DNA from: an uncultured bacterium
GTDB taxonomy: Bacteria; Fidelibacterota; Marinisomatia; SCGC-AAA003-L08; JACNLC01
DNA: 64,000 nt
Direction: 5' to 3'
Assembly: GCA_964527215.1 (NCBI GenBank)
Contig: CAZGNZ010000017.1
Coordinates: forward strand, 1,610-65,609
Made by a program: the position numbers and the translations under genes. The notes under the pieces were generated by a model. The model made no database searches. It was not told the DNA's origin and was given only the letters and a program-made list of their open reading frames with translations. Positions 6,911 to 31,436 of this stretch are shown here, one piece after another; the first letter of the stretch is position 1; every line of letters starts with the position of its first letter.

Positions 6911-7075
6911 CTAATGAACGGATTATCAATAAAACGTTTTGTACGAATTTGAGGTCAAATATCGAGCGTAATTGAAAATCCGTCTGCTGACCGATGCTGG
7001 AGAATTGACCAGATCCATTATCGTCCGGAAAATGCGAAGCATTTTACGCATGGAAATTCTCATGAAATATTCGGA
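6911..7075 (-). mobile_element. MITE-like element, variant copy C (abuts copy A; left boundary approximate)
   Basis: It ends with the same terminal motif (CTCATGAAATATTCGGA at 7059-7075). Its interior aligns to the reverse complement of 21810-21948, apart from an extra segment of about 22 nt. Confidence 0.55.
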
Positions 7076-8271: not shown

Positions 8272-9518
8272 TTTTTACTCAGCCAGTGCTCTGGATTGAA
8301 TTTTTCATTTTCACCCCATACTTCAAAATGGAAATTTGCAGCACCGCCGTTGGCGATTTCGGTCTTGCTGACTTTTGCGATGAGCATCCCTGATTTCACA
8401 TATTCCTTCTCTGTAACCTGAATCTGATCTACATTGGCATACACGGTATGATAGCCGGAACCGTGCGAAATGATGATCACCTGCTTATATCCGTGCAGAA
8501 AACTGACACGGGATACGATACCATCCAAAACGGTGACAATATCAGAACCGGGTGCAGCTTTCAGGTCGATACCGGGATTTTCGGTTTTTGTTTTCAGGGC
8601 TTCATTGTACTGAATACCGTATTGGTTGACAATTTGCCCGGATACCGGCCAAGGCAGTCTGCCGCGCAAGTCCTTGAAATTTCCTTCCGTGGCCATCTGC
8701 TGAGCTTCACGGATTCGGACCAGTTCCGCCTCGTATTCCTGAGCGGAGGATTTATCTTTCAACAGCTGTTTGATGAGGTTTTCAAGCTCTGCAACCATCT
8801 GTTTTTTTGAGTTCAGCTGTTTTTCAAGGCCTGATTTTTCAGATTCCAGTTGTTTCTTAAAAGTATCCCGCCGGGCTTTGTCAGCAACCATGTTTTCGTT
8901 TTCCCGGTTTTTTTCATCCCGCAGCTTTTGAACATTCACCAATTCCTGATTGTATGATTCCGTTTCTGCCTCCAGCTCCTGAACGGTCTGTTCAATGTGA
9001 TGCATCAGGGTATCTTTATGGCGATTGATGGATTCAAGATATTTTACCCGATAAACCATATCATCCCAGTTTTCTGACAGGAGCAAAATTTCCAGAAAGG
9101 TGGGTTTACCGGATTTATAGAGATAGACAACCACATCACGCAGTTTCAGCTGCAGCGAGGACAGGCTGCCGTTTTTTTCCTCAATGGCATTCTGCGTGAT
9201 CTCTATCTGATCCCGAATCAGTCTCTCCTCCCGACTGAGAGACCGGACCAGTTTCTCGGTCAATTGGATTTTGTGATCAAGATCACGAATAATGCTTTCC
9301 ACAGAATAGGCGGCCCGTTCCTTTTCCTGAATCTGCCGCTCAAGCTGCTGAACTTCCGCTCTCAGGCTGATAAGATCGGTGTGCTGATGATCAATATCTT
9401 TCTGGATTTCCCAGGATGCCCGGTGTTCCTGATTCCAAACCAGGGTCAGACACAGCAGACAAAAAATGAAGTAAATAAATTTTTGCATCGTTAACCAGAC
9501 AAAATTAGCAATATCCAT
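8268..9518 (-). CDS. EnvC-like coiled-coil protein with a degenerate LytM/M23 domain (murein hydrolase activator type)
   Basis: It has a signal/TM segment, then a long coiled coil, then a C-terminal M23 fold. The metal ligands are degenerate: NPGIDL replaces HxxxD and NFHFE replaces HxH. Its end overlaps the holB start by 4 nt. Confidence 0.75.
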   Translation of the reverse strand: MDIANFVWLTMQKFIYFIFCLLCLTLVWNQEHRASWEIQKDIDHQHTDLISLRAEVQQLERQIQEKERAAYSVESIIRDLDHKIQLTEKLVRSLSREERLIRDQIEITQNAIEEKNGSLSSLQLKLRDVVVYLYKSGKPTFLEILLLSENWDDMVYRVKYLESINRHKDTLMHHIEQTVQELEAETESYNQELVNVQKLRDEKNRENENMVADKARRDTFKKQLESEKSGLEKQLNSKKQMVAELENLIKQLLKDKSSAQEYEAELVRIREAQQMATEGNFKDLRGRLPWPVSGQIVNQYGIQYNEALKTKTENPGIDLKAAPGSDIVTVLDGIVSRVSFLHGYKQVIIISHGSGYHTVYANVDQIQVTEKEYVKSGMLIAKVSKTEIANGGAANFHFEVWGENEKFNPEHWLSKK

Positions 9519-9636
9519 CCAAGTTTTGGGATGCTTTTCCGCTGGCCTTGTTAAAGGTCAAATCTGACCAAAACGTTTATACAATACTCGTACTTATCTG
9601 ATACAATTTTCTTGTACAGCTGCCCCGGCAGAGCGC

Positions 9637-9774
9637 TGACAATTTTGTATGTTTTGTCTCCGAGGTGCTGTCACTGGTCAAAAACGTCGTCCCTTCAGGA
9701 CTTGAATCCTTCCCTCTTTCTCTCCGGTGGCTGAAGCCACCGGCTGGACAACCATTCCCCTTCGGGGAATAAAG
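9637..9774. repeat. Array unit X1 (5'-truncated, 3 substitutions relative to X2-X4)
   Basis: Aligns to offsets 19-156 of unit X. The differences are T/C, T/C and C/T in ...GTCTCCGAGG...CACTGGTCAAAAA. Confidence 0.9.
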
Positions 9775-10042
9775 AGAATTCGATGGTTTTCCGGCAGAGC
9801 AAACCACATCTTCAATGGGATTTCCGAAGTAATACTCATCAACGGACTCAGTGACGCAGAAGCATAGGTTAAATTCATTCTGCGCAGGGATTCATCTGTC
9901 TGCCTGGCTCGTAAAAATGATCCCGGCAGGGATCAGGGTATGCAGCCGGTGGCTTCAGCCACCGGTACGGGAAGTACAATATCGCAGTCCTGAAAGGACG
10001 ACGTTAAATTGACGGACAACCATTCCCCTTCGGGGAATAAAG
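9775..10042. repeat. Array unit Y1 (268 nt)
   Basis: Starts AGAATTCGATGGTTTTCCGGCAGAGC and ends GACAACCATTCCCCTTCGGGGAATAAAG. Identical to Y2. Confidence 0.9.
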
Positions 10043-10198
10043 AAAGTACGATGGTTTTAGTGACAATTTTGTATGTTTTGTCCCCGAGGTGCTGTCACCG
10101 GTTAAAAACGTCGTCCCTTCAGGACTTGAATCCTTCCCTCTTTCTCTCCGGTGGCTGAAGCCACCGGCTGGACAACCATTCCCCTTCGGGGAATAAAG
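10043..10198. repeat. Array unit X2 (156 nt)
   Basis: Starts AAAGTACGATGGTTTTAGTGACAATTTTG and ends ...GACAACCATTCCCCTTCGGGGAATAAAG. Identical to X3 and X4. Confidence 0.9.
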
Positions 10199-10354
10199 AA
10201 AGTACGATGGTTTTAGTGACAATTTTGTATGTTTTGTCCCCGAGGTGCTGTCACCGGTTAAAAACGTCGTCCCTTCAGGACTTGAATCCTTCCCTCTTTC
10301 TCTCCGGTGGCTGAAGCCACCGGCTGGACAACCATTCCCCTTCGGGGAATAAAG
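10199..10354. repeat. Array unit X3 (156 nt)
   Basis: Identical to X2, producing an X-X doublet. Confidence 0.9.
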
Positions 10355-10622
10355 AGAATTCGATGGTTTTCCGGCAGAGCAAACCACATCTTCAATGGGA
10401 TTTCCGAAGTAATACTCATCAACGGACTCAGTGACGCAGAAGCATAGGTTAAATTCATTCTGCGCAGGGATTCATCTGTCTGCCTGGCTCGTAAAAATGA
10501 TCCCGGCAGGGATCAGGGTATGCAGCCGGTGGCTTCAGCCACCGGTACGGGAAGTACAATATCGCAGTCCTGAAAGGACGACGTTAAATTGACGGACAAC
10601 CATTCCCCTTCGGGGAATAAAG
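10355..10622. repeat. Array unit Y2 (268 nt)
   Basis: Identical to Y1. Confidence 0.9.
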
Positions 10623-10778
10623 AAAGTACGATGGTTTTAGTGACAATTTTGTATGTTTTGTCCCCGAGGTGCTGTCACCGGTTAAAAACGTCGTCCCTTC
10701 AGGACTTGAATCCTTCCCTCTTTCTCTCCGGTGGCTGAAGCCACCGGCTGGACAACCATTCCCCTTCGGGGAATAAAG
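10623..10778. repeat. Array unit X4 (156 nt)
   Basis: Identical to X2 and X3. Confidence 0.9.
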
Positions 10779-11047
10779 AGAATTCGATGGTTTTCCGGCA
10801 GAGCAAACCACATCTTCAATGGGATTTCCGAAGTAATACTCATCAACGGACTCAGTGACGCAGAAGCATAGGTTAAATTCATTCTGCGCAGGGATTCATC
10901 TGTCTGCCTGGCTCGTAAAAATGATCCCGGCAGGGATCAGGGTATGCAGCCGGTGGCTTCAGCCACCGGTACGGGAAGTACAATATCGCAGTCCTGAAAG
11001 GACGACGTTAAATTGACGGACAACCATTCCCCTTCAGGGAAATAAAG
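10779..11047. repeat. Array unit Y3 (269 nt, last hairpin degenerate)
   Basis: Identical to Y1 and Y2 except at the end, where CCCCTTCAGGGAAATAAAG replaces CCCCTTCGGGGAATAAAG. Confidence 0.9.
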
Positions 11048-11299
11048 AGAAACGGCTCTGTGCGGCAAAAAGAACCCTGTGTTCCGGCGGACTTTTCCGC
11101 TCAGATTTTCCCAAAAAGGGAATTCGTCGGCAGGTGTGAATTTCAACCGGATCGTAATTCCTTTATTTCCAATGCGATTATTGTTCTCCGGATTTTCAGG
11201 AATCCGTTTTGAGGGACGGTGCACTTTTTGGCATTGTTGTTGCGAAAAGAATGACAAATTTCATTTCTATTAAAATTCCTTTGTCGGAGATACTCAAAT

Positions 11300-11611
11300 A
11301 TGGATCAGAAACAAATCAGTTCGGGACAAAGCCTGAATAATATGATTGAACAGGAACGAATCACTGCAATCCACGAAATTATCACAACCGTTAACCATGA
11401 AATCAATAACCCGCTTACAGCCATTATCGGCAATACTGAATTGCTTGATCTGGAGCTGAAATCCGGTAATCATCAAAAATTGGCCTCCGCATTGGATTCC
11501 ATCGCCTCTGCGGCCCAACAAATAAAACAAGTCACTCAACAATTAGCCAACATTACCTCATCAAAGACTGAGATCTACGCCGGTCGAAGTCGCATGACCA
11601 GTTTGTCCTGA
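11300..11611 (+). CDS. Orphan HisKA/DHp-only protein (103 aa, no ATPase domain)
   Basis: It has an H-box-like VNHEINNPLTAIIGNTELLDLEL followed by a second helix (ALDSIASAAQQIKQVTQQLANI). An intrinsic terminator follows directly. Confidence 0.65.
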   Translation: MDQKQISSGQSLNNMIEQERITAIHEIITTVNHEINNPLTAIIGNTELLDLELKSGNHQKLASALDSIASAAQQIKQVTQQLANITSSKTEIYAGRSRMTSLS

Positions 11612-11751: not shown

Positions 11752-14259
11752 TTACCCGGTCTCTGCTGAGGGTATTTTCACCCTCAATGTCGTGCCTTTG
11801 TCAAGTTCACTCTCCACCTCAATCACACCGTTGAACTCCTTGACAATTCCATGAACAATTGAGAGTCCCAGCCCGGTACCTTCACCCACTTCCTTGGTTG
11901 TGAAAAAAGGTTCAAGGCAGCGCTGTTTTGCAGACTCAGACATACCAATCCCATTGTCTGTAACCTCAAACACGGCAAATGGTGATCCTTCATGATGAAA
12001 AAGATGCAGGCCAATTTCAGGGCTGTACGCAGTGATTTTTCCCTGTTTTCTTTTGGATTCCACTGCAAACCTGGCATTGGACATGAAATTCACAACGATC
12101 TGCTGGAATTCCTGGGGATTGACAAGAACCAGCGGAAGGTGATCCTGAATTTCAATGTTTAATTTGATATTATGGACTTTAAACTGCTGCTGGAAAAAGA
12201 CAAGACTTTCGCGTACAGGCTGTATCAGATTGATCCGGTCCGTGGGACTGGAGGATTTCCGGGAAAAATTACGCATATGGGTAATAATGTCTGACGCTCT
12301 TCGGACCTGATTTAATATCAGATCCATATCGTTCATGGTTGTTTCCGGGATATTCTTCATGTTTCGAAACTGAAGCTTGAGAAGTTCTACCTGAGCCTGA
12401 ATGATGGCCAGGGGCTGATTCAGTTCATGAGCCACGCCGGTCGCCATCTCACCCAGTGAAGCCAGTCGGCTCGAATGCACCAGCTGAGCCTGTTTTTCCT
12501 GCAGTTCCAATGACCGTTCCTTTACCATTTCCTCCAAATGATCACGGTATTTTTCCAGTTCGGATTCATTCCTTTTCTGCCGTGTGATATCATTCCCGAT
12601 GACGACTGCGCCCTCGATCTCATTCCGGTCATTCATCAGAGGAACGGCAGAATTTAAAATAATCTTTGATTCCCCGTCCTGACTGTGAATCTGGACCGGT
12701 TCATTTAAGGTGGTGATCCCTGACTCACAGGCTTTGGCGGATGCCCATTCATGAGGCTCAATTTTCTTACCGCTGTCAAGAAACCAGCCGTCATATTCAA
12801 AGTCATCAAGGCTGTTGTTCAGTTCCGGAACTGCCCATATCCTCCGGCTTGCCAGATTGTCGCTGACCACATTCCCTTTTTTATCGGTGATCCAGACACC
12901 CACAGGCAGAATTTTCAAAACCTTCCGAATTCGCTCTTCATTTTCCCTCAGTGCCCGGCTGGCTTCCTGACGCTCCAGAAATACAGACAGCAGCTCACTG
13001 ATTACAATCAGTACCCTCTGTTCGTGTTCGTACCACTTTCGGGAGCTCAGATGATCCTCCACCACCAGATAGCTGTGCGGTTTTTCACGAAAAAGGACTG
13101 GTACTGCCATAAGCGCACGAAGTTCGGTTTTCCGGAACCACTCCACCATGACAGTATCCGAAGCAGGTACATTTTTTGAGCTTCTGATAATAACGGCCTC
13201 GCTCTGCCTGAATCGATCCATTATCCGGTGTCCCAGTTCATTCTGACGGCTCGGGAAAAAAATAGAATCCACCATAGGCTGATCCGGATTCATCCAGGTT
13301 GAACCGCCGGGAAAATCAGTCACATTATCATCCAAAGATACGATGGTCACCCTGCTGGCTTTCATTGTGGTTCCCATCAGTTTCATCAGTTGAGGGAAAT
13401 CCGGAGTATCGCCGGAAGCAAACAGACGGGATGCCCTGGCAATGGCTTCCTCCAGCATCAGATGATGAGTGATAATTTTTTCTGATTTTTTCCGTCTGGA
13501 AATATCTGTGGTCAGCACGACAATTTTGGATACTTCGCCGTCTCTGCCGTACAAAGCATAAAAATACTGTGATATCCAGGTGGCTTTACCCGGCCGGTTT
13601 TTATGCAGCCTCATTTCAGGGATATGATACTCACCCCCATTCTCGTAAACTTCCCGAACACCGGCAGCATGCTCACCCAGGTAAGAATCCCGTTGATCCA
13701 GACGGAACTGTTCGCGGGGTTCAAAATACTGAGCCAGATCCTCATCCGGAATGGCCCATATCTCTCGCCAGGCTCGATTGACGATCAGCAGCTGTCCATT
13801 TTTCTCCCGGATGGAAATACCGATGGGTGAGTTTTCGATCACAACGCGGATTAAGCCCTCGTACCCGTCTTTAATGCTGCCGGATATCTGCTGATCCATT
13901 TCCAGCGTCCGGTTGACCCGTGTCAGCTCCTGCCTGAGTTCAGCCTTTTCCAACGCAATCCTGAGAACCTGGACCGCCGGTTCAAGATATTTTTCCAGTA
14001 ATCCCTGATCTTTCTGGGCCATGCTGTCCATTGTCAGAAAACCGTATTTTCTGAAAAGGGTCTGAATTGGCATCCATCCGCTCGTGTCAGCATCAGAAAA
14101 AAGTTCCGAAGCCTGACGAAATTTCATATCGACGCCGTAACGATCCAGCAGATTGATAAAATTCTGGATGATCTGCCCCGGTTCCTCATCTTTGGATAAC
14201 TGGTAAATATGATCAATCAGATCAGGTATCTCTTTTAAAATGGTTTTATTAAAAGGCAT
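11752..14259 (-). CDS. Sensor histidine kinase HK1 (PAS-GAF-PAS-HisKA-HATPase)
   Basis: H-box LGEMATGVAHELNQPL, N-box NFMSNARFAV, G1 DNGIGM, G2 GTGLGLSIV, with upstream PAS- and GAF-like segments. Confidence 0.9.
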   Translation of the reverse strand: MPFNKTILKEIPDLIDHIYQLSKDEEPGQIIQNFINLLDRYGVDMKFRQASELFSDADTSGWMPIQTLFRKYGFLTMDSMAQKDQGLLEKYLEPAVQVLRIALEKAELRQELTRVNRTLEMDQQISGSIKDGYEGLIRVVIENSPIGISIREKNGQLLIVNRAWREIWAIPDEDLAQYFEPREQFRLDQRDSYLGEHAAGVREVYENGGEYHIPEMRLHKNRPGKATWISQYFYALYGRDGEVSKIVVLTTDISRRKKSEKIITHHLMLEEAIARASRLFASGDTPDFPQLMKLMGTTMKASRVTIVSLDDNVTDFPGGSTWMNPDQPMVDSIFFPSRQNELGHRIMDRFRQSEAVIIRSSKNVPASDTVMVEWFRKTELRALMAVPVLFREKPHSYLVVEDHLSSRKWYEHEQRVLIVISELLSVFLERQEASRALRENEERIRKVLKILPVGVWITDKKGNVVSDNLASRRIWAVPELNNSLDDFEYDGWFLDSGKKIEPHEWASAKACESGITTLNEPVQIHSQDGESKIILNSAVPLMNDRNEIEGAVVIGNDITRQKRNESELEKYRDHLEEMVKERSLELQEKQAQLVHSSRLASLGEMATGVAHELNQPLAIIQAQVELLKLQFRNMKNIPETTMNDMDLILNQVRRASDIITHMRNFSRKSSSPTDRINLIQPVRESLVFFQQQFKVHNIKLNIEIQDHLPLVLVNPQEFQQIVVNFMSNARFAVESKRKQGKITAYSPEIGLHLFHHEGSPFAVFEVTDNGIGMSESAKQRCLEPFFTTKEVGEGTGLGLSIVHGIVKEFNGVIEVESELDKGTTLRVKIPSAETG

Positions 14260-14379
14260 TGAATCCTCTCTCCAATTTGATCATATCCAACCGTTTCAAT
14301 CGATTGATCCGGATTTCGTTGGGTATTCTGCCAAGGTCCGGCCTGATGCCGCCAATGGGTATTTTCGGAATCATTGGTT

Positions 14380-17300
14380 TCAGTTGGTTTCCGGTGCGAT
14401 TCCCGCTGGGATGGCAATTCTAAACTCCGTCCCATTACCCGGAGCGGAATCCACCATCAGCTGTCCCTGGAATTCGCGAATGATATTGTGCACAATGGAA
14501 AGTCCCAGTCCGGTTCCTTCACCAACTTCCTTTGTCGTGAAAAACGGTTCAATGCAGTGTTCCTTCTCGTCCGGAGACATTCCGATTCCATTGTCGGCAA
14601 CCTCAATGACCACGGAGTCTTCAGATTCAGAGAAAAAGCTGCGGATCGTCACAATCCGCTGATACCCCGGTCCTGCATTTTCCGCCATTTTATCTACGGC
14701 ATACCGGGCATTGGACATGAAATTGACAATCACCTGTTCCAGTTTCTGCGGATTAATTCGAACCTTGGGCAAATTGGCTTCCTGCTCAACCTTCAGGTCA
14801 ATATCATTGACCCGGAACTGCTCACGGAAAAATACCAGGCTGCCGTTTACGGGATCGGCAATATCCACAAGCTCTGGATAGGACATTGTTTTTCGCGCAA
14901 ACCCCCGCATATGATCGATTATCCGGGTGGCTCTTTCGACTTCGTTGATGATGTTGTCAAGATCCCGATCCATCTCATTGCCCTGGTCTTGTTTGCAGTA
15001 TATCATTTTAAGAAGCTCCGCCTGAGCCCGAATGATGGAAAGAGGCTGGTTTAGCTCATGAGCCACCCCTGTGGCCATTTCACCCAGGGAAGCCAATCTT
15101 CCGGAATGAGCAAGCTGAGCCTGTTTTTCCTGCAGTTCCTTTGTACGCTGCTCTACCAGATCCTGAAGATGTTCCTGATAATTGGACAGCTCCTTTTCTT
15201 TCTGCTTTCGATCCGTGATATCCCGGTAAATACCGTAAACAGCCAGCTGACTGTTATCCAGAATAATTGGAGCTCCCGTCACGGAAACATCTATCGGCTG
15301 ATTATTTTTATTTTTCCGAACTGTCTCAAATTCCACCAGCTTTCCGTCCAAAACAACCTGTGTGGTTTCCAGGCTTTCCGCTTCCCTGCCTTCGGGAATG
15401 ATCAGATCATTGATGCATCTGCCGTGGAGCTCTGCCCGGCTGTACCCAAAAAGCTCAATGAAACGGATATTGGCCATAATGATGGAGTTGTTCATATCCA
15501 GCAGAACAATAGCATCCGGTGATGAGGCAAACAGTTTTTCAAAATAGGTTTTTTGCACTCGAAGCTGATTTTCAGCCTGCCATCTATCCGTAATATCTTC
15601 ACCGGAACTGAGGGTGCCCGTAATCTGTCCGCTTTCATCTCTGATGATACTGTCTCTCCACGCGATGATGCGCTCGAATCCCTCCCGTGTTGTAATGGGA
15701 TTGGTGTATTGCGGGCGCGGTTCACGCTTTCCGGTTACTATTTCCTGAAAATCCCTGTGAACTTTATCGCGGATTGAGTCCTCTATGAAGCAGTTAAACC
15801 AGTTTTTTCCAACAATTTCATTTCGCGGAAGCTCCAGGATTTCCTGGCCTTTGCGATTGATCTGAAGCACTGCACCGGTACAGTCCAAAATAAGGATGAT
15901 AACCCCGGCGATATCCAAATAAGTCTGAACTTTTTCTTTTTCTTTTCGAAGCTCGTTTTCCGTTTGACGCTGTTTTGTGACATCCATGACCAGTTCCACT
16001 GTTCCGATCACTTCACCCGTCCTGCCAATTACCGGCTGAATTCGAACACTGTACAGTTTGCTGTCACTCTCACAAATCGATTCTATTTCAACGGGCGTTC
16101 GAGTTTCCATTACCTGTTGAAAATCGCAGTCGCCGCTTATCGCATTCTTGTTTATGATTTCATCATAGCAGGGTCGGGTCGGCATTTCGTCAAAAGCCTG
16201 CTTCTGTTCAGAAGATGGATGATTGGTCCAGACGACATTCAGTTTCCGGTCCCGGAATACAATGTATTTGTAGATGCTTGCCAGTATCGCTGCTTTTTCG
16301 TATTCGCTGCGCAGCAAGGCATTATGGGTTTCAGACTGCTCTGTTATATCCTGAATGACCGTAACAATATGGCATACCCGGCCATCTTCAAACAACGGGA
16401 TTTTCCTGATCTCAGTAATCAATGTTTCCCCGTTAAAATTTAACCGGTCGGTTTTGATGATTTTCTCCCCGGTTCTGAATATGCTCTGATACTCGGACCG
16501 GCTTTTCTCGTCAATCATCGGATACGTTTCGAACAGATTCTCCCCGATGGGATTGAGATTCAGCTCCAGTTTCTTATGCAGTTTCAGCTGTGTCTGGTTT
16601 ATATCCACAATTCTGAATTCCGGATCAATCAGGAAAATACCATCAGTCATAGAGTCCACCATCTTATGGTATTTTTCCTTTTCCCAGCGCAGGTCTTTTG
16701 AAGCATTAACTTTCTCGGAAATATCACGGCATATGGATAAAACGGCGGGTGTATTCCGGTAGGTAAATGGAACGGCAGAGGTTTCAACATCCAGAACCTG
16801 TCCCTGAATGTTGATAAACTTCTGCGCTATCGAGGGCATTACTATTCCTTCGTTCAGAGTTCGGCGGATACGGTCCATGACCTGTTCATAACTGTTTTGT
16901 TGGATAAAATCTGTAATGGGCCGGCCGTATAGGTCCTCGGGATTGTCAGCGCCGGTCAGTTTCAGAGCTGCCGGATTGCAGTAAACAAGTTTGCCGTCTA
17001 TATGAATACCCACCGCATCCGGCAGTGCTTCAACCAGACAACGGTATTTTTTTTCATTTTCCTCCAGTATTTCCTGATATTCGATTCTATCTGTCACATC
17101 CCGAATAATACCGATCACACCGAATTTATAATTCTGCATTGAAGTGCGAATTTCCAGGTGCCGGTTATTGTATTCCAGGGCAAACCAGGGAACGGCGGTG
17201 CCTGTGAGCCCCTGTCGAACCATTTTGAGTATACCGGGAATTTGGGCTTTGGACAGATGTCTGCGAACGAGAGAAAATACAGATTGATCGATGACGTCTT

Positions 17301-17871
17301 CCGCTGAAAGCCCGGTCATTTCACTGAAAGCCCTGTTCACCTCCAAAACCTTTCCGGCAAGTGAAACCAAAACGATACCGTCTCCGGCATTCTGGAAAAA
17401 ACCGACATATTTTCGGTAAAGGGCTTCAAAATCCGGATCAGGCTGGTTACTTCTGTTCCGCTGGCTTTCGTGTTCATTCTGCATGACAGACAGCCGCATC
17501 AGGGTCCTGATACCAGACCGCACTGCGCTGCGCGGGACTGGAACCGGGTAGATCAATTCTGGCTCTGCACCCGCCACTGCTTCTGTAAGTTCAGAATCCG
17601 CATCCCGGGGCATGAACACCGTTACAGGGATCAGTTCTGAAACTGGATTTTCAGAAAGCGTCTGCAGGTCCCTGACGACGTCCTCTGTTCCTGCATGAAT
17701 GCGGACATCATAAAAGAGCAGGTTTGTTTTTTCTTTACCGGTCGAATTCAGGAATTGGTTCAGTGAAGTGACCCATTCTGTTTCAGAGGACGAATCTGAC
17801 ACTTCCTGAACAATATCCGACAGCAGTTCCATCAGTTCAGAATCACCTGAAATCACTGCTGTGCGGCTCAT
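14380..17871 (-). CDS. Sensor histidine kinase HK2 (N-terminal receiver-like domain, about six PAS-like modules, HisKA-HATPase)
   Basis: H-box LGEMATGVAHELNQPL, NFMSNARYAV, DNGIGM, GTGLGLSIV, with repeated PAS S-box-like segments. Its start overlaps the HK3 stop by 4 nt. Confidence 0.9.
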   Translation of the reverse strand: MSRTAVISGDSELMELLSDIVQEVSDSSSETEWVTSLNQFLNSTGKEKTNLLFYDVRIHAGTEDVVRDLQTLSENPVSELIPVTVFMPRDADSELTEAVAGAEPELIYPVPVPRSAVRSGIRTLMRLSVMQNEHESQRNRSNQPDPDFEALYRKYVGFFQNAGDGIVLVSLAGKVLEVNRAFSEMTGLSAEDVIDQSVFSLVRRHLSKAQIPGILKMVRQGLTGTAVPWFALEYNNRHLEIRTSMQNYKFGVIGIIRDVTDRIEYQEILEENEKKYRCLVEALPDAVGIHIDGKLVYCNPAALKLTGADNPEDLYGRPITDFIQQNSYEQVMDRIRRTLNEGIVMPSIAQKFINIQGQVLDVETSAVPFTYRNTPAVLSICRDISEKVNASKDLRWEKEKYHKMVDSMTDGIFLIDPEFRIVDINQTQLKLHKKLELNLNPIGENLFETYPMIDEKSRSEYQSIFRTGEKIIKTDRLNFNGETLITEIRKIPLFEDGRVCHIVTVIQDITEQSETHNALLRSEYEKAAILASIYKYIVFRDRKLNVVWTNHPSSEQKQAFDEMPTRPCYDEIINKNAISGDCDFQQVMETRTPVEIESICESDSKLYSVRIQPVIGRTGEVIGTVELVMDVTKQRQTENELRKEKEKVQTYLDIAGVIILILDCTGAVLQINRKGQEILELPRNEIVGKNWFNCFIEDSIRDKVHRDFQEIVTGKREPRPQYTNPITTREGFERIIAWRDSIIRDESGQITGTLSSGEDITDRWQAENQLRVQKTYFEKLFASSPDAIVLLDMNNSIIMANIRFIELFGYSRAELHGRCINDLIIPEGREAESLETTQVVLDGKLVEFETVRKNKNNQPIDVSVTGAPIILDNSQLAVYGIYRDITDRKQKEKELSNYQEHLQDLVEQRTKELQEKQAQLAHSGRLASLGEMATGVAHELNQPLSIIRAQAELLKMIYCKQDQGNEMDRDLDNIINEVERATRIIDHMRGFARKTMSYPELVDIADPVNGSLVFFREQFRVNDIDLKVEQEANLPKVRINPQKLEQVIVNFMSNARYAVDKMAENAGPGYQRIVTIRSFFSESEDSVVIEVADNGIGMSPDEKEHCIEPFFTTKEVGEGTGLGLSIVHNIIREFQGQLMVDSAPGNGTEFRIAIPAGIAPETN

Positions 17872-20800
17872 AATACCTTCCCTGAACCCTCTGGAATCAG
17901 ATGGGATGAATAATCAGGAGGACAGGCCGGGAAACTGATACTGACTGTTGTGCCCTGGTTTTTTTTACTGCTGATATATATAGAACCACCGAATTCACGA
18001 ACAATACTGTGAGAAATGGACAGACCCAATCCTGTTCCGACACCCACTTCTTTGGTGGTGAAAAAGGGTTCCATGCATTTCTGTTTTTCTTCCGGGTTCA
18101 TTCCAATTCCATTGTCAACCACTTTTATGGTCACATAATTTGTGAATGAATTTTCAATCGTTGTCAAACAGATTTTCATTTCCGCTCGGTTCGTATCCCG
18201 GCTTTCCACAGCGTACCGGGCATTGGACATGAGGTTTACAATCACCTGTTCCAGTTTCTGAGGATCTATCAAAATCTGAGGGAGGTTGTCTGCCAGTGAC
18301 AGCTCAAGCTGGATTCCGTGCGCCCGAAACTGTTCCTTGAAAAAAATGAGGGTCTGATTGAGAAGGAAATTTACATCGCAGGGATCGGCGGGCTGTCCCT
18401 CTTTCCGGGAAAAACTGCGCATTACACTGATAATTTTTGCAGCCCGGTCCACCTGATCCATAATTTTATCAAAATCCTTCAGTTGAGCCGGACTCATCAA
18501 ATTTCGGTTTTTACTTTGCAGGCGCAGCAGTTCTGCCTGCATTCGAATGATAGACAGGGGCTGATTGAGTTCATGGGCAACACCGGCAGCCATTTCACCC
18601 AGAGCCACCAGCCGTCCGCTGTGGACCAGCTGAGCCTGATGTTCTTTCAGTTTTTTCTGTATCTCTTTCGCCTCTGTAATATCCATCAGGAAGGAGCGAA
18701 TTTCGGCATGATCGGATTCGACATCCGGATAATATCGGGTTAATTCATAAATCCAGAAAATCCGGTCGTGATGCTGAATCCGGTATTCCTGTTCAAGCAC
18801 TCCCTGGGGCTTTGAAAGATATTCCTTCAGTTTACCCTGGACCTCCGCGGAGTCATCAGGGAATACAAGTTCGCGCAGATCCAGGCCGCCTTCAAGAAAT
18901 GCATTGCGTTCAAGTTCAAGCTGAGTAATATTCGGGGACACGTACCTCAAATGAGCCTGATCAGGCGGATTCCAGTCCCACTGGAATACAATGATAGGTC
19001 CTTCAATGAATAAATCCCGTTCTCTCTCCAATTCCCTGTTGATTACATCCAGTTCTTCCGTCCGCTTCTGTACCAGATTTTTCAGATTCTGCTTTTGCCG
19101 GTTGATATACCGGGTGCGGAAATTAATGCTGCCAAGGATTATCAGAATCACTGCCAGGACCAGAAAAATTCTGAACGGTGCGGTTCTCCAGATCGGCGGG
19201 TGTATCAGCACATTCAGCATAATCCCCTCATCGTTCCAGACACCGTCGTCATTGGAGGCCTTCACTCGAAATGTGTAGCTTCCTCCGGGCAGACTGGTAT
19301 ATGTGGCAATACGCCTGTTCCCGACGTAATTCCAATCCTTTTCAAACCCTTCCAGGTAGTAGGCATACAGGTTTCTTTCAGGCTGATTAAAAGACAGTGC
19401 CGAAAACTCAAATGAAATCACGTAGTCATCATAATTCAGTTCAATTGTATCCGTATGAAGGATTGATTTATGCAGGATTTCCCTGCCGTCATCCATTTCC
19501 CCAATGGGGACCGGCTGATTAAACAGGCTGAATCCCGTGATTTTAACAGGCGGGCTGAACGGATTCAGCGTCACATCAAGCGGGTTGAAAGCATTGAGTC
19601 CGTTAATCCCGCCAAAATAGAATGTACCGCTGTCTCCTCTGTGATACGCACCGGCGTTGAACTCGTTGCTCTGCAGCCCATCTGATTTATTGAAATACCT
19701 GAACTGTCCGTCATCGGGATTCATTCGGCAGAGACCGTTGTTGGTACTCATCCACAAACATCCGCTGTCATCGCGAATTGTACCATAGACAACATCGCTG
19801 GGAAGCCCGGAAAAGGTTGTATAGGTATCAAATATTCCGCTGATGGGGTCCAGCCGGATCAGCCCTCCGCCATACGTGCCAATCCACAGCATCGTACCGT
19901 CATTGTAGAGGGAAAGAACATCATGACTGCGTTCTGCACGGAGATATTTTCGCTGAAAGTTATGGTGTATCAAATGGCCCGGCTGTTCGGGAGTCATTTC
20001 AAAAACCCCACGGCTGTTGGTGCCGATCCAATAATGTCCGTTCTGATCCTGGGTCATGCAGGTGACGCCATATTTCAGCGGGGAATCAGCTGTTCCCGGA
20101 TCGGAGGGATAATTCCACCAAAGCCCGGCCTCGGGCTGGTAACGCGAGATACCCCTTCCTGTGGACATCCACAAGGTGTTTTCATTATCCTCAAAAATAT
20201 GATACACGCTGTTATCCAGAAGACTGTTTGGATTTTTCGGCTGATGGAAAAAACGCTGAAATGAATCCGTCTCGGGCTGATACCGATTTAAACCGTTGTC
20301 AGTTGCAACCCATATGGATTGGTCACGACTCTGGTAAATAAACCAGATTACATCAGAACTGACGGTGGTGGAATCCTCCGGAATATGGGTTTTGGTTTTA
20401 AACTCATCCGTACCAGATTCCAGAATATTGATACCGCCGAAAGTGCCGACCCAAAGCGACCCGTCTGACATCTCAAACATGGTGTAAACATGCTTGTCAG
20501 TAAGCAGATCGGGATTTCGAGGTGTGTTGTGAAATACCTTGAATTTTCGGGCGTGGGGGGCATAATAGCTGAGACCGGATCCAATTGTTCCAAACCAGAC
20601 AATTCCCTCTGCATCTTCAAAAATGGTCAGTATGACATCCCCGCAGATGGTGGAACCATCGTAGGGATCATGAAAAAAACGCGTGAAGGTTCCCTGCTCC
20701 CGGTTCAGGATATTCAGACCGTCGGAGGTCGCTATCCAGAATATTCCCCTGCTGTCTTCAAAGAAATTATAAACATAATTACAGCTCAGCGATGTCTCAT

Positions 20801-21599
20801 CACCGGGATCATTCAGATAACTCTGAAATCCATCCGTCTCAGGCAGATAGCGGCTGATTCCCCCATTTTCAGTGCCAATCCAGAGATTCTTCTGACGATC
20901 AGAATACACACAATAGATGGAATTATCCTGAACAGCATTGGGGTTTCCCGGGTCTGCCGGGTAATGGATGAATGTACTGTCAACAGGATTGAACCGGTCC
21001 AGCCCATTACTGGTCCCGATCCACAGGTTTCCGGCAGAATCAAAACTCAGGGTTGTGACAAGGTCTGAAATCAGGCTGCCCGGATCATCATCCCGGTGCC
21101 GGAATCTTCGAGCGGTGTTCCGATTGGTGTCAAGACATGCAAGACCGCCGTCAACAGAAGCAATCCACAGTGTACCGTCTTCATCCTCCGCCATCCACCA
21201 GATCGATTTTCCGGTTTGTCCCTGGAGACTGTCGGAATCGCTGGAATACCGGATGAATGACTCCCTTTCAGGATCATATCGGTTCATCCCTCCCCATTGA
21301 GTTCCCAGCCACATGCGGGATTTTCGGTCCATAAAGATATGAAACACAGACAGATGACTGAGTGTTGTTGAATCGCCGTATTCCGGCGTAAACACTTTGA
21401 ACTGCTGACCGTCATAGCGGTTGAGACCTTCCTCTGTTCCAAACCAGAGAAAGCCGCTGGAATCTTGATTTATGGCGTAAATGGTATTCTGGGAAAGGCC
21501 GTCATCAATATTGACATGTTTAAATTCAATATCCCTGTATTGCCCGGCAGCAACAGATAACAAGCAAAATATGAGCCCAATTCCAAACGTCTTATTCAT
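17868..21599 (-). CDS. Sensor histidine kinase HK3 with a periplasmic two-component-regulator beta-propeller plus Y_Y_Y domain
   Basis: It has a signal peptide and many repeats of the type WIGT..GL.R(Y/F). These are followed by a Y_Y_Y-like segment (YAYYLEGFEKDWNYVG...YTFRVKASN), one TM helix, a PAS-like domain, the H-box LGEMAAGVAHELNQPL and an HATPase domain. It lacks the REC and AraC outputs of classical Bacteroidetes HTCS proteins. Confidence 0.9.
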   Translation of the reverse strand: MNKTFGIGLIFCLLSVAAGQYRDIEFKHVNIDDGLSQNTIYAINQDSSGFLWFGTEEGLNRYDGQQFKVFTPEYGDSTTLSHLSVFHIFMDRKSRMWLGTQWGGMNRYDPERESFIRYSSDSDSLQGQTGKSIWWMAEDEDGTLWIASVDGGLACLDTNRNTARRFRHRDDDPGSLISDLVTTLSFDSAGNLWIGTSNGLDRFNPVDSTFIHYPADPGNPNAVQDNSIYCVYSDRQKNLWIGTENGGISRYLPETDGFQSYLNDPGDETSLSCNYVYNFFEDSRGIFWIATSDGLNILNREQGTFTRFFHDPYDGSTICGDVILTIFEDAEGIVWFGTIGSGLSYYAPHARKFKVFHNTPRNPDLLTDKHVYTMFEMSDGSLWVGTFGGINILESGTDEFKTKTHIPEDSTTVSSDVIWFIYQSRDQSIWVATDNGLNRYQPETDSFQRFFHQPKNPNSLLDNSVYHIFEDNENTLWMSTGRGISRYQPEAGLWWNYPSDPGTADSPLKYGVTCMTQDQNGHYWIGTNSRGVFEMTPEQPGHLIHHNFQRKYLRAERSHDVLSLYNDGTMLWIGTYGGGLIRLDPISGIFDTYTTFSGLPSDVVYGTIRDDSGCLWMSTNNGLCRMNPDDGQFRYFNKSDGLQSNEFNAGAYHRGDSGTFYFGGINGLNAFNPLDVTLNPFSPPVKITGFSLFNQPVPIGEMDDGREILHKSILHTDTIELNYDDYVISFEFSALSFNQPERNLYAYYLEGFEKDWNYVGNRRIATYTSLPGGSYTFRVKASNDDGVWNDEGIMLNVLIHPPIWRTAPFRIFLVLAVILIILGSINFRTRYINRQKQNLKNLVQKRTEELDVINRELERERDLFIEGPIIVFQWDWNPPDQAHLRYVSPNITQLELERNAFLEGGLDLRELVFPDDSAEVQGKLKEYLSKPQGVLEQEYRIQHHDRIFWIYELTRYYPDVESDHAEIRSFLMDITEAKEIQKKLKEHQAQLVHSGRLVALGEMAAGVAHELNQPLSIIRMQAELLRLQSKNRNLMSPAQLKDFDKIMDQVDRAAKIISVMRSFSRKEGQPADPCDVNFLLNQTLIFFKEQFRAHGIQLELSLADNLPQILIDPQKLEQVIVNLMSNARYAVESRDTNRAEMKICLTTIENSFTNYVTIKVVDNGIGMNPEEKQKCMEPFFTTKEVGVGTGLGLSISHSIVREFGGSIYISSKKNQGTTVSISFPACPPDYSSHLIPEGSGKVL

Positions 21600-21809
21600 A
21601 AACAGGCAATTATAAAATCAAAAACTGCAGAACCTACATACTGCACTGCAGCAGGAAATCAGCGTGTAAAAACAGTGACGATGTATTATGGATTAAGGGG
21701 GGAGCCTAATTTAACGGTATTCGATTTATTAAAACCACAAGAAGATTTCTCGAACCTGAAATCCGCACATTCGGCCGCAGCGTTTATAAATCAGCCGACC
21801 CATTGCTGC

Positions 21810-21948
21810 CCCGCATATTTCTCGAAAATATGCATGCGTAAAATGCTTCGCATATTCCGGACGATAGTATATCTGGTCGATTCTGTTTCAATTACGCTCG
21901 ATATCTGTTCTCATTTTACTGTCCGTACAATGTCGATGAATTTCCCTG
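21810..21948 (+). mobile_element. MITE-like element, variant copy D (boundaries approximate)
   Basis: It aligns to the reverse complement of copy C (CATGCGTAAAATGCTTCGCAT...CAATTACGCTCGATAT). The terminal motifs are degenerate. CTGC is present on both flanks (21806-21809 and 21949-21952). Confidence 0.6.
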
Positions 21949-22075
21949 CTGCAGGAAAAGAACCAGAGTAATACGTGCTGCAGATCAATTTTATCTCGAT
22001 TGAATCCGTCAGTGGGCGGATTTTTAATCCGTCTCCTGACGGACAAGTGTAACTGGGTGCATTCCCCGCCGCTTG

Positions 22076-22171
22076 TTTGAAATCCGCCATTTGGCGTGGC
22101 GGCGAAATAAAAAATGATTATATCACTAATGATACCCCGTCCCGTCGGCTGACGGGCGGGGAAATTCATTA
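22076..22171 (+). repeat. Short intergenic repeat family E, copy 1
   Basis: AAATCCGCCATTTGGCGTGGCGGCGAAAT...CCGTCCCGTCGGCTGACGGGCGGGGAAATTCATTA is shared with 31341-31436. It contains two GC-rich hairpins. Confidence 0.8.
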
Positions 22172-22265
22172 TTTCTATGTGTGAGATTCAGTAAACCATT
22201 GTTGAAATCCGTCTGTGATCGAGAGCGGATCAGGTGTATTTTGGACAGACTGGTGTGATCCGGTT

Positions 22266-25200
22266 TCAGCTGCTTTCCGGAATGGGTATTTTGAGCTGTA
22301 CCGAAGTACCGGACATGGGTTTACTTTTAATTTTCAGGCTGCCGTTAAAATCAGCCATGAGGTTTTGAACAATTGTAAGTCCCAAACCGGTACCTTTGGA
22401 TTGGCTTTTGGTTGTAAAAAAGGAATCCCGGCAGTGTTTGAGTTCATTTTCATCCATGCCAATCCCATTATCTGAAATTTCAAGATAGCTGCAGCGGGAT
22501 TCAGGATCAAAGCGTGCAATAATTTCAATTTCCATCTGATAGCTTTTTTCAGCCACGCTTTTTCGCTGTTCCACTGCATGCCGGGCGTTGGAGAGGAAAT
22601 TCACGACGATCTGCTCAAACCGGACAGGGTTGACGGGAATCAGCGGAATGTCATTTGGAAGACTTGTTTTGAAAATAATGCCGTGATTGCGGAACTGTTC
22701 ACGGAAAAACATCAGGCTGTCGCGAATAGGAAAGACGATATTGATCGGATCCTGATGTTCAGCTGCCATGGTTGAAAAAGTACGGGCATGTTCCATGATC
22801 TCCTGTGCCCGGTCAGCCTGTTTCATAATGTTCTGGCAGGTTTCCAGTATGTCCGTTTTCGGCGGAATATTTTTGTTCAGATTTAATTTCAGACATTCCG
22901 CCTCTCCACGGACAATTGAGAGAGGCTGATTCAGTTCGTGGGCAATCCCTGCTGCCATTTCACCCAGCAGCGCCAGTCTTCCGGTATGAGCCAGTTTGGT
23001 TTCCTGCTTCTGGAGCTCCATTTGGGCATACTTCAGTTCCGAAACATCCATGAAAAAACTGTTAAACACCTGAGCATCAGACTGCTGGGCGTCTTCGTGG
23101 ATACGAACCTGAAAATATATCCAGCGCTCATCGGAGTTGGGAAGAATCACTTTCACTTCATTTTCCAGCACTGACAGCTGACCCTCCTGCAGTTCACGGA
23201 TGCCATTTTTCAGACGTTCATAGTCTTCCGGAAACAGCAGGGTGTCATAGGAGAATTTTGCCTGCAGCACATCTTCCGGCATTACACCAAACTGAAAAAT
23301 GTTGGGGGAGGCATAGGTGGCTTTCACCGGCTTGCCGGGCTTCAGCTCCCAGTTGATCACCGCAACCGGTCCGGTAAGAAATAAATCCCGTTCAGCTTCA
23401 ATGAGTTTCTTTGATTCATTCAGCTCAGCGGTACGCTGCATCACCATTTCTTCCAGCTGCTGCTTATACCGCTGCAGTTCCTCCTCTGCACGTTTCTGAG
23501 CAGTCACATTTCGGGAAATGCCGACCATCCCCTGAATTTGACCCTTCCTGTCTCTGACCGGGACTTTGGTTGCCGTAACCCACAAATCATGATTTCTGGG
23601 ACCCTTCAGTTTCTCAAGCTTGTTGATTACGGGTCTTCCGGTCCTAAACAGCTCCAGTTCATCAGTAAGCATCGCCTCAGCCGTCTGGTTTTCAAAAAAA
23701 TCAAAATCAGACTTGCCGACAGCCTCCAGCGGTGATTTCACTCCAAGAACCCGTGCCTGCGCGTTGTTGATCAGTGTAAACCGGCTGTATTTGTCTTTAA
23801 AATATATAGTATCCGGTATGTTTTCCATCAAGGCATCCAGCAGTCCCCTGGCGGATGTCTCTTCCTGCTCCGGCGTCAGCAAATACACAACCACCGCAGC
23901 ATTGATAACGGTTGATTTATCATTGGCTGCCGGCTGAAACCGGCATTCCAGACGTCCGATGAATTCCGATTCGGCAGGCAGCGGAACCAGTACCCTGGAT
24001 GATTCACCTTCAAAGCAGCGTTTCAGGTGCTGCAGCCAGAAGGACTGATAATCCTGAGTGATAAAATCAAGCAGATGATGTCCTTCCACCGGACTTTTGG
24101 AAAACAGATCGTAACCGAAAGGCTGCTGAGCAGACAGCATCTTGATCTGATATTCGTCATCCAGCAATAAAAACATCAGATTGAAATTTTCCAGGACATC
24201 GCCAAGGATTTTCTGCCAAAACTGAGACTGGCCTTCCGGTGATATCTGAACTTCTCTTGCAATGCCCATAATTCCCGCCGGCTGATTATTTTCATAAATA
24301 ATCGTACTCCAGATTTCCACAAGAATGGACCTTTTGCTCCCGGTGATCATTCGATACTGCTCCACCCGGGTCTGAAAACCGGTCTGCCGTATTTGAGTCA
24401 GCATCACCAGCGAACGGGATAGATCAGATGGATGTATCAAATCCCGATAGCTGAGTTTTTTGAACTTTTCACCGTCATATTCAAACAGTGCCTGTGCAGC
24501 AGGATTGGCATCCACGAAGTTACCGTCAAGATCATGGATAAACAGGGGAGTCGGGGTGTTTTCAAACAGATTTTGGTGATTTTGGCTTTTTGCCTGGAGA
24601 TTTTTCCGAATAAACTGGCGGTCGGTTGCATCCTGAAAAGAGATCAGCAGCAGCGGTTCGCCGTCAATAATCACTGATCTGGCGGTCAGCTCCATGGGAA
24701 TGTCTTCTCCCTGTCCGGTTTTCAACACCCAGTTGAAAACGTGCTGCTCTTTTTTTCTGGCCACCCCAAGCTGTTTCTGTAAGTTGCGGGAGTCATCATC
24801 ATTCTGAATGAACTGCAATGGAGTCAGGTCTGATATTTTCTGATGAATCAAATCCTGGCAATCCTGGAACCCCAGTCTGCTGACAGCAGCAGGATTGCAT
24901 TCAATAATACTGTCTCCTTCCAGAAGCAGCATCGGGCGATCTGACTGATTAAAAATCTGTCTGTATTTATCTTCGGCTTTTTGAAGCTTGTTTTCCTGAA
25001 TCCGTTTACTGAGACAGCCGGAAATGCTTTCATGCAGCATTTCAAAGGAAACGGGTTTTCTAAAATAGTTCGATGCTCCCAGCCGGACGGCTTGAATAGC
25101 GGTATCGATATCTCCATGGCCGGTGACAACAATGGTCTGAAGGCTGGGCTGAATTTCCTTAGCCTTGCGGATCAGTTCAATTCCATCCATTCCCGGCATG

Positions 25201-25379
25201 CGGATATCCGCCACCATTACATCATACTGCTGTTTCCGAAGACATTCAAGGGCATCGGAACCGGAATGCGCCATGTCAATCTGGTAATTGCCGGAATAGT
25301 GCAGCAATCCTTTCTTTACCAGTCCGCACAGACTGACTTCATCATCGGTTAAAAGTACATGAGCTGAATCGTGGATCAT
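22266..25379 (-). CDS. Hybrid sensor histidine kinase HK4 (N-terminal REC, several PAS, HisKA-HATPase)
   Basis: The REC domain has DVMVADIRMPGMDG...TGHGD...KP. The H-box is LGEMAAGIAHELNQPL, with NFLSNARHAV, DNGIGM and GTGLGLTIV. Confidence 0.9.
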   Translation of the reverse strand: MIHDSAHVLLTDDEVSLCGLVKKGLLHYSGNYQIDMAHSGSDALECLRKQQYDVMVADIRMPGMDGIELIRKAKEIQPSLQTIVVTGHGDIDTAIQAVRLGASNYFRKPVSFEMLHESISGCLSKRIQENKLQKAEDKYRQIFNQSDRPMLLLEGDSIIECNPAAVSRLGFQDCQDLIHQKISDLTPLQFIQNDDDSRNLQKQLGVARKKEQHVFNWVLKTGQGEDIPMELTARSVIIDGEPLLLISFQDATDRQFIRKNLQAKSQNHQNLFENTPTPLFIHDLDGNFVDANPAAQALFEYDGEKFKKLSYRDLIHPSDLSRSLVMLTQIRQTGFQTRVEQYRMITGSKRSILVEIWSTIIYENNQPAGIMGIAREVQISPEGQSQFWQKILGDVLENFNLMFLLLDDEYQIKMLSAQQPFGYDLFSKSPVEGHHLLDFITQDYQSFWLQHLKRCFEGESSRVLVPLPAESEFIGRLECRFQPAANDKSTVINAAVVVYLLTPEQEETSARGLLDALMENIPDTIYFKDKYSRFTLINNAQARVLGVKSPLEAVGKSDFDFFENQTAEAMLTDELELFRTGRPVINKLEKLKGPRNHDLWVTATKVPVRDRKGQIQGMVGISRNVTAQKRAEEELQRYKQQLEEMVMQRTAELNESKKLIEAERDLFLTGPVAVINWELKPGKPVKATYASPNIFQFGVMPEDVLQAKFSYDTLLFPEDYERLKNGIRELQEGQLSVLENEVKVILPNSDERWIYFQVRIHEDAQQSDAQVFNSFFMDVSELKYAQMELQKQETKLAHTGRLALLGEMAAGIAHELNQPLSIVRGEAECLKLNLNKNIPPKTDILETCQNIMKQADRAQEIMEHARTFSTMAAEHQDPINIVFPIRDSLMFFREQFRNHGIIFKTSLPNDIPLIPVNPVRFEQIVVNFLSNARHAVEQRKSVAEKSYQMEIEIIARFDPESRCSYLEISDNGIGMDENELKHCRDSFFTTKSQSKGTGLGLTIVQNLMADFNGSLKIKSKPMSGTSVQLKIPIPESS

Positions 25380-31058: not shown

Positions 31059-31340
31059 GATTCCTGTTTTTCTCGTTGTTCAGGATGATTCGCCCCCCCC
31101 CATCCGCAAATTCAATCAAGTGCTTCGTTTGCGGGAATATCTCGTTTTCTGCAGAAAACCTGTTCGAATTCATCTGTTTTGCGGTTTTGAGATCACACAA
31201 AATTACAAAGGACTTCGGGTATTTTCCGCCTTAACAGGCAACCACTGTTTACTATGACCGGTGTACCGCAGTGCGTTCAGCCGGAAATTACCCAGGCTGT
31301 CGCTGGAACCCGAACAGAATCAATCCTTGGATACTGTGAT

Positions 31341-31436
31341 TTTAAATCCGCCATTTGGCGTGGCGGCGAAATTGTAAATGACCCGATCGATTATTGATAC
31401 ACCGTCCCATCAGCTGACGGGCGGGGAAATTCATTA
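31341..31436 (+). repeat. Short intergenic repeat family E, copy 2
   Basis: It shares the ends and hairpin cores of 22076-22171, but its central segment differs. Confidence 0.8.

Follow-up and report, generated by a model that had tools for sequence, protein, structure and literature searches.

A tandem array in an uncultured Marinisomatia genome, read as a BIME-like cluster of three-hairpin modules of a kind tied to Y1 transposases

Bacterial interspersed mosaic elements (BIMEs) are clusters of repetitive extragenic palindromic (REP) sequences set in alternating orientation (PMC2817692), and in the GTAG tag of REPs it is the AG that selects the CT cleavage site (PMC8266576). The arrangement of REP doublets forming hairpins (REPINs) and REP-associated tyrosine transposases (RAYTs) has also been described (PMC3116915, PMC5581495), and is matched by that of the repeat family discussed below. 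Certain Y1 transposase genes lie between long inverted repeats, partly double-palindromic, that form families found in dimers or clusters (PMC3733652), and the Acido-Lenti-1 motif of Acidobacteria and Lentisphaerae appeared in print in 2010, described as a probable RNA whose function was unknown (PMC2864571). Here, we describe a repeat array located at positions 9637-11047 of a 64,000-nt stretch of DNA (the window) from an uncultured bacterium of the GTDB lineage Fidelibacterota; Marinisomatia (assembly GCA_964527215.1, contig CAZGNZ010000017.1, positions 1,610 to 65,609). We read this array, with a probability of roughly 0.78, as a BIME-like cluster of seven ~95-nt three-hairpin modules, of a kind tied to Y1 transposases, that has been amplified locally. 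On this reading it is a REP/BIME-like remnant of selfish DNA and not a new class of regulatory RNA.

Repeat mapping, in which positions 9200-11500 were read directly, searched with two repeat finders and compared unit by unit at single-base level, gives the order X1(partial)-Y1-X2-X3-Y2-X4-Y3 for two types of unit. A preliminary description, made from the sequence alone, had proposed this order, together with the identity of X2, X3 and X4 and of Y1 and Y2, and was correct in every detail checked; its three substitutions in X1 and its confinement of the changes in Y3 to the last hairpin were likewise borne out. The units are as follows.

9619-9774, plus strand: X1, with homology to X from unit position 19 onward only (window 9637..9774); 5'-truncated or diverged, with three substitutions relative to X2-X4
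9775-10042, plus strand: Y1, 268 nt
10043-10198, plus strand: X2, 156 nt
10199-10354, plus strand: X3, identical to X2
10355-10622, plus strand: Y2, identical to Y1
10623-10778, plus strand: X4, identical to X2
10779-11047, plus strand: Y3, 269 nt, the right edge of the array

What the preliminary description overlooked is that the two unit types share a module. Inverted-repeat analysis identifies the 3' two-thirds of X and, as an inverted copy, the 3' half of Y as one element of ~95 nt, lying on the plus strand in X and on the minus strand in Y. The module consists of three hairpins, namely hairpin A (cGTC-GTCC-N5-GGAC), followed by a spacer of ~22 nt, hairpin B (CCGGTGGC-TGAA-GCCACCGG), followed by CT(A/G) and a linker of ~8 nt, and hairpin C, the stem of which varies through compensatory changes. 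Thus X with its junction reads AACGTCGTCCCTTCAGGAC, 21 nt, CCGGTGGCTGAAGCCACCGGCTG, 8 nt and ATTCCCC-TTC-GGGGAAT, while the reverse complement of Y has, in place of this third hairpin, a different and equally good one, TGATCCC-TGCC-GGGATCA. Hairpin B, a perfect 8-bp stem with a 4-nt loop, occurs seven times in the window and is present in all copies of the wider family. A covariance model, R1, built from metagenome copies only, returns exactly seven full-length matches in the window (70.6-84.7 bits, E 1e-17 to 1e-21), which fall within the score range of family members; the four plus-strand modules, in X, score 84.7 bits and the three minus-strand modules, in Y, 70.6 bits. An nhmmer profile, likewise made from metagenome copies alone, recovers the seven as well, and neither it nor R1 finds a copy elsewhere in the 64 kb. 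The seven copies are listed below.

9683..9779, plus strand: module copy 1, in X1, hairpins A-B-C (R1 84.7 bits, E 9e-22; nhmmer 62 bits)
9909..10005, minus strand: module copy 2, inverted, in Y1 (R1 70.6 bits, E 8e-18)
10107..10203, plus strand: module copy 3, in X2 (R1)
10263..10359, plus strand: module copy 4, in X3 (R1)
10489..10585, minus strand: module copy 5, inverted, in Y2 (R1)
10687..10783, plus strand: module copy 6, in X4 (R1)
10913..11009, minus strand: module copy 7, inverted, in Y3 (R1)

The module orientations therefore run + - + + - + -, with identical linkers and fixed spacers of 150, 103 and 70 nt; the head-to-head pairs (Y then X) lie 103 nt apart and the tail-to-tail pairs 150 nt apart, and one pair is direct. 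Regularly spaced alternating repeats, conserved linkers and tandem repetition are the features by which a BIME is recognized, and all are present here save at that one direct adjacency.

The module belongs to a widespread family. A degenerate search pattern in which only the stems of hairpins A and B were fixed (GTCC-N5-GGAC-N18-26-CCGGTGGC-N4-GCCACCGG) matched 86 metagenome contigs, 85 of which have a common architecture that takes in a conserved linker resembling CTATACGAC and, at a constant distance, a third hairpin, the exception (L040) being a chance match in GC-rich coding DNA. This third hairpin takes 76 different sequences across the family. When X and Y are compared with the 86 loci by BLAST, only X ~63-156 and Y ~146-234 align, at no more than 80% identity over 84 nt (E 1e-14). 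For the analysis of covariation, 150 copies comprising 132 distinct sequences were aligned to R1; RNAalifold had overlooked hairpin C in a first alignment, owing to register shifts, and realignment to the covariance model recovered it. Over the 132 distinct copies, 93.6% of cells are paired, compared with 27-51% in slid controls, and none of 500 shuffles reached the observed values. Compensatory changes are found in 11 of the 18 pairs, including all six of hairpin C. Those in the stems of hairpins A and B (UA>CG 13 times, CG>UA 19 times) come from copies recovered by the model only.

Two further properties of the family bear on its nature. Directly 3' of hairpin B there is a C in 123, a T in 128 and an A in 112 of the 132 copies, which on the other strand reads as WTAG. 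Secondly, the modules come as two types of arm: in type 1 the third hairpin is TTCCCC...GGGGAA and the element stops right after it, while type 2 carries AACCCCTGTCGGGGTT and an extension of ~35 nt, CCAGGTAC...GATGAACC. The typical family doublet is a heterodimer of type 1 and type 2. One sediment contig with six modules and a Y1 gene (L038) also contains (AAACCAT/AACCATG)n 7-nt tandem repeats between convergent modules, up to ~450 nt in length (L038:84-205 and L038:1526-1930). The exact junction AACCATTCCCCN3-5GGGGAATAAAG is absent from GTDB representative genomes and JGI metagenomes, a scan of viral contigs for hairpin B gave no match, and a BLAST search with one X+Y stretch against phages and plasmids returned nothing meaningful.

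The tie to transposases comes from the metagenome loci. In at least 10 of them, a Y1 transposase gene lies between or beside inverted modules in the order [C'B'A']-gene-[ABC]. The gene is of ~150 codons (150 aa) and its product matches PF01797 (Y1_Tnp) with E 3e-24 and the NCBIfam IS200/IS605 model NF033573 with 71.6 bits (cut-off 55); its HuH motif, DH[VI]H, and its catalytic tyrosine, in IRYVxEQ, are both conserved, and the nearest solved structures are of ISDra2-type TnpA. Neighbouring modules form 71 pairs, 56 of them head-to-head; 40 of the 56 have a gap of at most 65 nt and eight a gap of 478-504 nt, which equals the length of the gene. Gene-less head-to-head doublets are thus much commoner than gene-flanking pairs, and direct pairs are nearly absent. 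This layout is the one known for non-autonomous elements of the REP/REPIN-RAYT or TIR/TIRtron kind. The preliminary description had remarked that the array recalls BIME/REPIN clusters, a comparison that the inverted doublets and the flanking of Y1 transposases vindicate for the module family; it had also named in advance dispersed copies beside a RAYT or transposase as the observation that would make the array an ordinary REP or miniature inverted-repeat transposable element (MITE), and such copies are what the family displays in other organisms. Two of the loci (L016:481-650 and L016:1320-1490, and also L087) carry in duplicate, ~840 nt apart, a stretch made of the final ~40 nt of the Y1 frame with the module downstream of it; one copy comes after the intact gene, and the other stands by itself as a gene remnant. 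At L016:371-526, directly upstream of a module and the truncated 3' end of a transposase, there is a weak match to group II intron D1-D4 (31.9 bits, threshold 49), and Acido-Lenti-1 has been reported sometimes near group II introns (Weinberg et al. 2010, PMC2864571).

In Rfam, the part of the module that runs from hairpin B through the linker to hairpin C is the Acido-Lenti-1 motif (RF01687), an identification made by covariance-model score and motif layout. In five of the 86 loci the B-C part scores 38.6-46.8 bits for RF01687, above the gathering score of 37, while the modules immediately adjoining the Y1 genes of L038 and L090 give 27-36 bits (E 1e-4 to 0.02), just below it. The copies in the window miss the threshold, with 13.5-15.9 bits against 37, and in alignments to hairpin A and not to B-C; the whole window has no Rfam match at gathering thresholds, and positions 9400-11400 at E up to 10 give chance-level partial matches only. 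The Rfam comparison suggested in the preliminary description was therefore negative for the window itself and positive for homologous modules elsewhere, and its statement that the units belong to no recognisable class does not hold, given that the core of both belongs to a widespread Y1-associated family whose two 3' hairpins are RF01687. In the RF01687 seed, Lentisphaera araneosa is represented by clusters, both tandem and alternating, whose periods are 74, 110-115 and 192 nt, so arrays like that in the window are a known habit of the motif. A connection between the motif and transposases is recorded in none of the papers and supplements searched, and the supplements of the original description (PMC2864571) mention neither IS200 nor a transposase. 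A broader reading, to which we give a low probability, is that all of Acido-Lenti-1 forms the hairpin end of a Y1-transposase/REPIN-like system that spans several phyla.

Rfam lists RF01687 as 'Gene; sRNA', and one alternative reading of the array is that the units are tandem small-RNA (sRNA) genes transcribed as structured Acido-Lenti-1-like regulatory RNA, perhaps tied to the nearby block of histidine kinases. The hairpins covary, a sigma-70-like site at 9578-9607 is directed into the array, the fold of Y is better than that of shuffled sequence on either strand (z about -3.3) and, in a terminator-like scan, the minus strand of each Y carries the 7-bp hairpin C TGATCCC-TGCC-GGGATCA followed by TTTTT. 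This inverted hairpin C in Y is the only one with a T-run, there being none after hairpins A and B on either strand. Promoter-like sites are however not enriched (one found, 1.9 expected), the fold z-scores are alike on both strands, and the modules, which are found equally in either orientation and for the most part in inverted doublets, lie at the flanks of transposase genes. Moreover, G.U/U.G pairs (14) are no commoner than A.C/C.A pairs (16) within the family helices, and such wobble pairs without strand asymmetry mean that neither strand is favoured as an RNA. Relatives that retain the neighbouring M23-holB operon lack the array. We consider tandem sRNA genes unlikely on this evidence, and nothing supports the regulatory role or the connection with the kinase block that the preliminary description had put forward as speculation. 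Equally doubtful is a domesticated, transcribed derivative, in which the unit-specific segments of X and Y (62 nt and ~113 nt) and the modules would form a multi-copy structured RNA acting on M23-holB or the kinase genes; its putative starts could be sites of the TGACAATTTTG type within each X, or that at 9578-9607. The combination of both orientations, similar fold z-scores and transposase association instead favours selection on the hairpins at the level of single-stranded DNA, while leaving room for transcription.

The units are built as follows. X consists of its 62-nt unit-specific 5' segment and then a type-1 module arm. Y consists of its ~113-nt segment, an inverted type-2 arm and, after a spacer of 9 nt, a solo terminal hairpin; the extension of its type-2 arm is shortened, and the solo type-1 terminus that comes next has neither hairpin A nor hairpin B. 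Units are joined by a 29-nt junction, GGACAACCATTCCCCTTCGGGGAATAAAG, present in six exact copies and a degenerate seventh, attained in none of 100 shuffles and found nowhere else in the 64 kb. The junction holds a variable hexamer, AAAGTA ahead of X and AGAATT ahead of Y, that always goes with the downstream unit, from which it follows that units end at ...GGGGAATAAAG, four bases past the end of the type-1 arm. At the left edge (~9624-9636), a fragment resembling the start of Y (CCGGCAGAGC) is fused to the body of X. At the right, Y3 departs from Y1 and Y2 in its terminal hairpin only, where it has a G>A substitution and one inserted nucleotide; this hairpin is degenerate. X2 and X3 form a direct tandem, a kind of pair nearly absent from the family.

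The junction itself invites comparison with two other kinds of array, a degenerate CRISPR-like array and an integron or CALIN (cluster of attC sites lacking integron-integrases) cassette array with the junction as attC. Its 7-bp hairpin followed by ATAAAG recalls type I-E repeats, with the last copy degenerate, and AACCAT...ATGGTT brackets it in the manner of an R''/R' pair. The 'spacers' would nevertheless be 127 and 239 nt long and are themselves identically repeated, where unique ones of ~30-40 nt are expected; GGACAAC and GTTTTCC/GTTTTAG misfit the core sites RYYYAAC and GTTRRRY; and, as the hexamer 5' of GTT belongs with the unit that follows, G|TT is not where two units meet. As the preliminary description had already stated of cas genes and transposases, no cas, integrase, transposase or other mobility gene occurs in the 64-kb window, and the 'repeat' is merely the module linker with hairpin C. 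Spacer length and identity, gene absence, core-site misfit and unit boundary together refute both readings, which we regard as highly improbable.

How might a BIME-like cluster of this form have arisen? The hairpins would be the single-stranded-DNA recognition structures of a Y1 transposase, and the conserved CT beside hairpin B (xTAG on the other strand) could have a guide or cleavage-site role, as in REPs and the ends of IS200/IS605 elements. A type-1 arm (X) and a type-2 arm (Y), each with adjoining unique DNA, would then have been amplified in place, probably through unequal homologous recombination, or slippage during replication, between the 30-45-nt junctions that the units share. That the interior units are identical and the edges diverged points to tandem amplification and homogenisation and not to seven independent insertions. 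Any present-day effect on the host, such as insulation or termination of transcription between the divergent M23-holB operon and the DHp gene, would be a by-product.

Several observations weigh against this interpretation. The spacers in the window are 103-150 nt, compared with the 65 nt or less typical of the family, and one pair is a direct (++) tandem. The tag beside hairpin B is CAG, as opposed to the TAG of 112-128 of 132 family copies; on the opposite strand the foot of hairpin B reads CCAG in X and GCAG in Y, so that only the AG of the tag is kept. A tblastn search found no Y1 transposase gene in the 64-kb window, and the transposase of the family scores just 29.5 bits, against a cut-off of 80, for the REP_Tyr_transpos model NF047646. 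The conservation of the stems of hairpins A and B is partly built in, since both were fixed by the search pattern, and we infer amplification by recombination solely from the pattern of identity among the units. Finally, the X 62-nt and Y ~113-nt segments have no BLAST match in the 86 metagenome loci, and a chimeric six-frame query of X and Y has none among 5.8 billion proteins. This last result also indicates that these segments are not recognisable gene remnants; none of the 10 open reading frames (ORFs) of the array is present in a collection of 15 billion proteins.

Copy number and unit order rest on the assembly behind the window and cannot be confirmed from short reads, as short-read contigs break at both array edges. 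Both flanks are 100% identical to independent short-read (Logan) contigs from at least three runs (13-17 samples listed), which end at window positions 9709 and 11006, ~31 nt beyond the copy-specific differences. Such ends are those of a k=31 graph at a true repeat, from which we take the repeat to be real in nature. It could still be that the number or order of units is an assembly artefact, and that the genome holds fewer of them (e.g. one X and one Y) or another order. The 30-nt stretch common to the ends of X and Y equals k-1, so short-read graphs cannot link a unit to its successor, and exact repeats of 156 and 424 nt are easily collapsed or over-expanded; all short-read contigs stop at the two edges. 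The breaks, on the other hand, show the sequence in more than one context in at least three independent runs, the edge units carry private substitutions, as those of a real array would, and clusters of the Acido-Lenti-1 motif are present in the genome of an isolate, Lentisphaera araneosa. An artefact of this kind is in our view improbable.

The neighbourhood of the array bears on its history. The M23 peptidase encoded beside it has best homologues of 45% identity, labelled Candidatus Marinimicrobia, and no close relative among GTDB representatives. Relatives with the M23-holB operon have neither array nor module, and their upstream spacer is only ~115 nt, which makes the array a lineage-specific insertion. 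The rest of the 64-kb window holds housekeeping and signalling genes, and the following features were recorded alongside the array.

11300-11611, plus strand: ORF of 103 aa, the DHp gene beside the array, with a HisKA (DHp) domain only (PF00512, E 7e-11) and no ATPase domain; the protein is identical on the short-read contigs listed for 17 samples
11752-25379, minus strand: four large PAS/GAF/beta-propeller histidine kinase genes in a row, their catalytic regions similar at the DNA level (62-82% over 127 nt)
7022-7074, downstream of holB: 53 nt with 87% identity (BLAST) to 21811-21863, near the start of the third kinase gene region
22076-22171 and 31340-31436: two copies, ~90% identical and 9.26 kb apart, of a second, unrelated intergenic repeat of ~95 nt, each with two GC-rich hairpins (CCGCCATTTGGCGTGGCGG and CCCCGTCCCGTCGGCTGACGGGCGGGG) and without a match in Rfam
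52598-54248, plus strand: parA and parB genes

The presence of parA and parB suggests that the window may lie near the chromosomal origin region. The array was accordingly considered as an origin or parS platform, and this was rejected: its units are not AT-rich (composition was profiled over 7-14 kb), and no DnaA-box or parS consensus was seen on reading, no formal scan having been made.

For the window, a candidate 'new RNA class' is thereby removed and the assembly breaks at the array are explained. The array also places such repeats in a deep-branching Marinimicrobia-related lineage, for which no elements of this kind are on record in the sources searched. More broadly, Acido-Lenti-1, without a known function since 2010, appears to form part of the inverted hairpin ends found on IS200-type Y1 units and on their gene-less doublets, and its association with transposases suggests a role at the level of DNA and not as a small RNA. 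The three-hairpin module is a possible substrate for studying how Y1 enzymes recognise DNA.

Set against known systems, the module family resembles in design the REP, BIME and REPIN-RAYT elements of E. coli, Pseudomonas and Stenotrophomonas, with which it shares a perfect 8-bp palindrome closed by a short loop, next to which a similar tag is conserved (xTAG on the opposite strand), a predominance of head-to-head doublets, alternating clusters and inverted copies around a Y1/HuH gene; as with the Y and Z REPs of BIMEs, its doublets are heterodimers of two arm types. It differs in that a REP is a single palindrome of 20-40 nt whereas the module is ~95 nt with three hairpins, in that its tag is WTAG across the family, and CAG for the copies in the window, where REPs have GTAG, and in that its transposase scores as IS200/IS605 and not, like a RAYT, as REP_Tyr_transpos. 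The copies in the window are, unlike those of REPs and BIMEs, embedded in 156-nt and 268-nt units with unique segments, in exact tandem and between divergent genes. RF01687 corresponds to the B-linker-C part of the module, with an 8-bp hairpin with a 4-nt loop, CUA and ~9 nt, and a 5-bp hairpin, while the Rfam model lacks hairpin A. The terminal inverted repeats (TIRs) and TIRtrons of Di Nocera et al. 2013 (PMC3733652) offer a further parallel, being long inverted repeats around Y1 genes, some of them double palindromes, whose families are also moderately abundant and occur as dimers or clusters, including in Acidobacteria, a likeness of description. Miniature elements derived from IS200/IS605 (palindrome-associated transposable element (PATE)/MITE type) are alike in being non-coding, keeping hairpin ends recognised by a Y1 enzyme and lacking terminal direct repeats; the ends of IS200/IS605 elements are themselves asymmetric, the left end differing from the right, whereas here the gene lies between inverted copies of one module.

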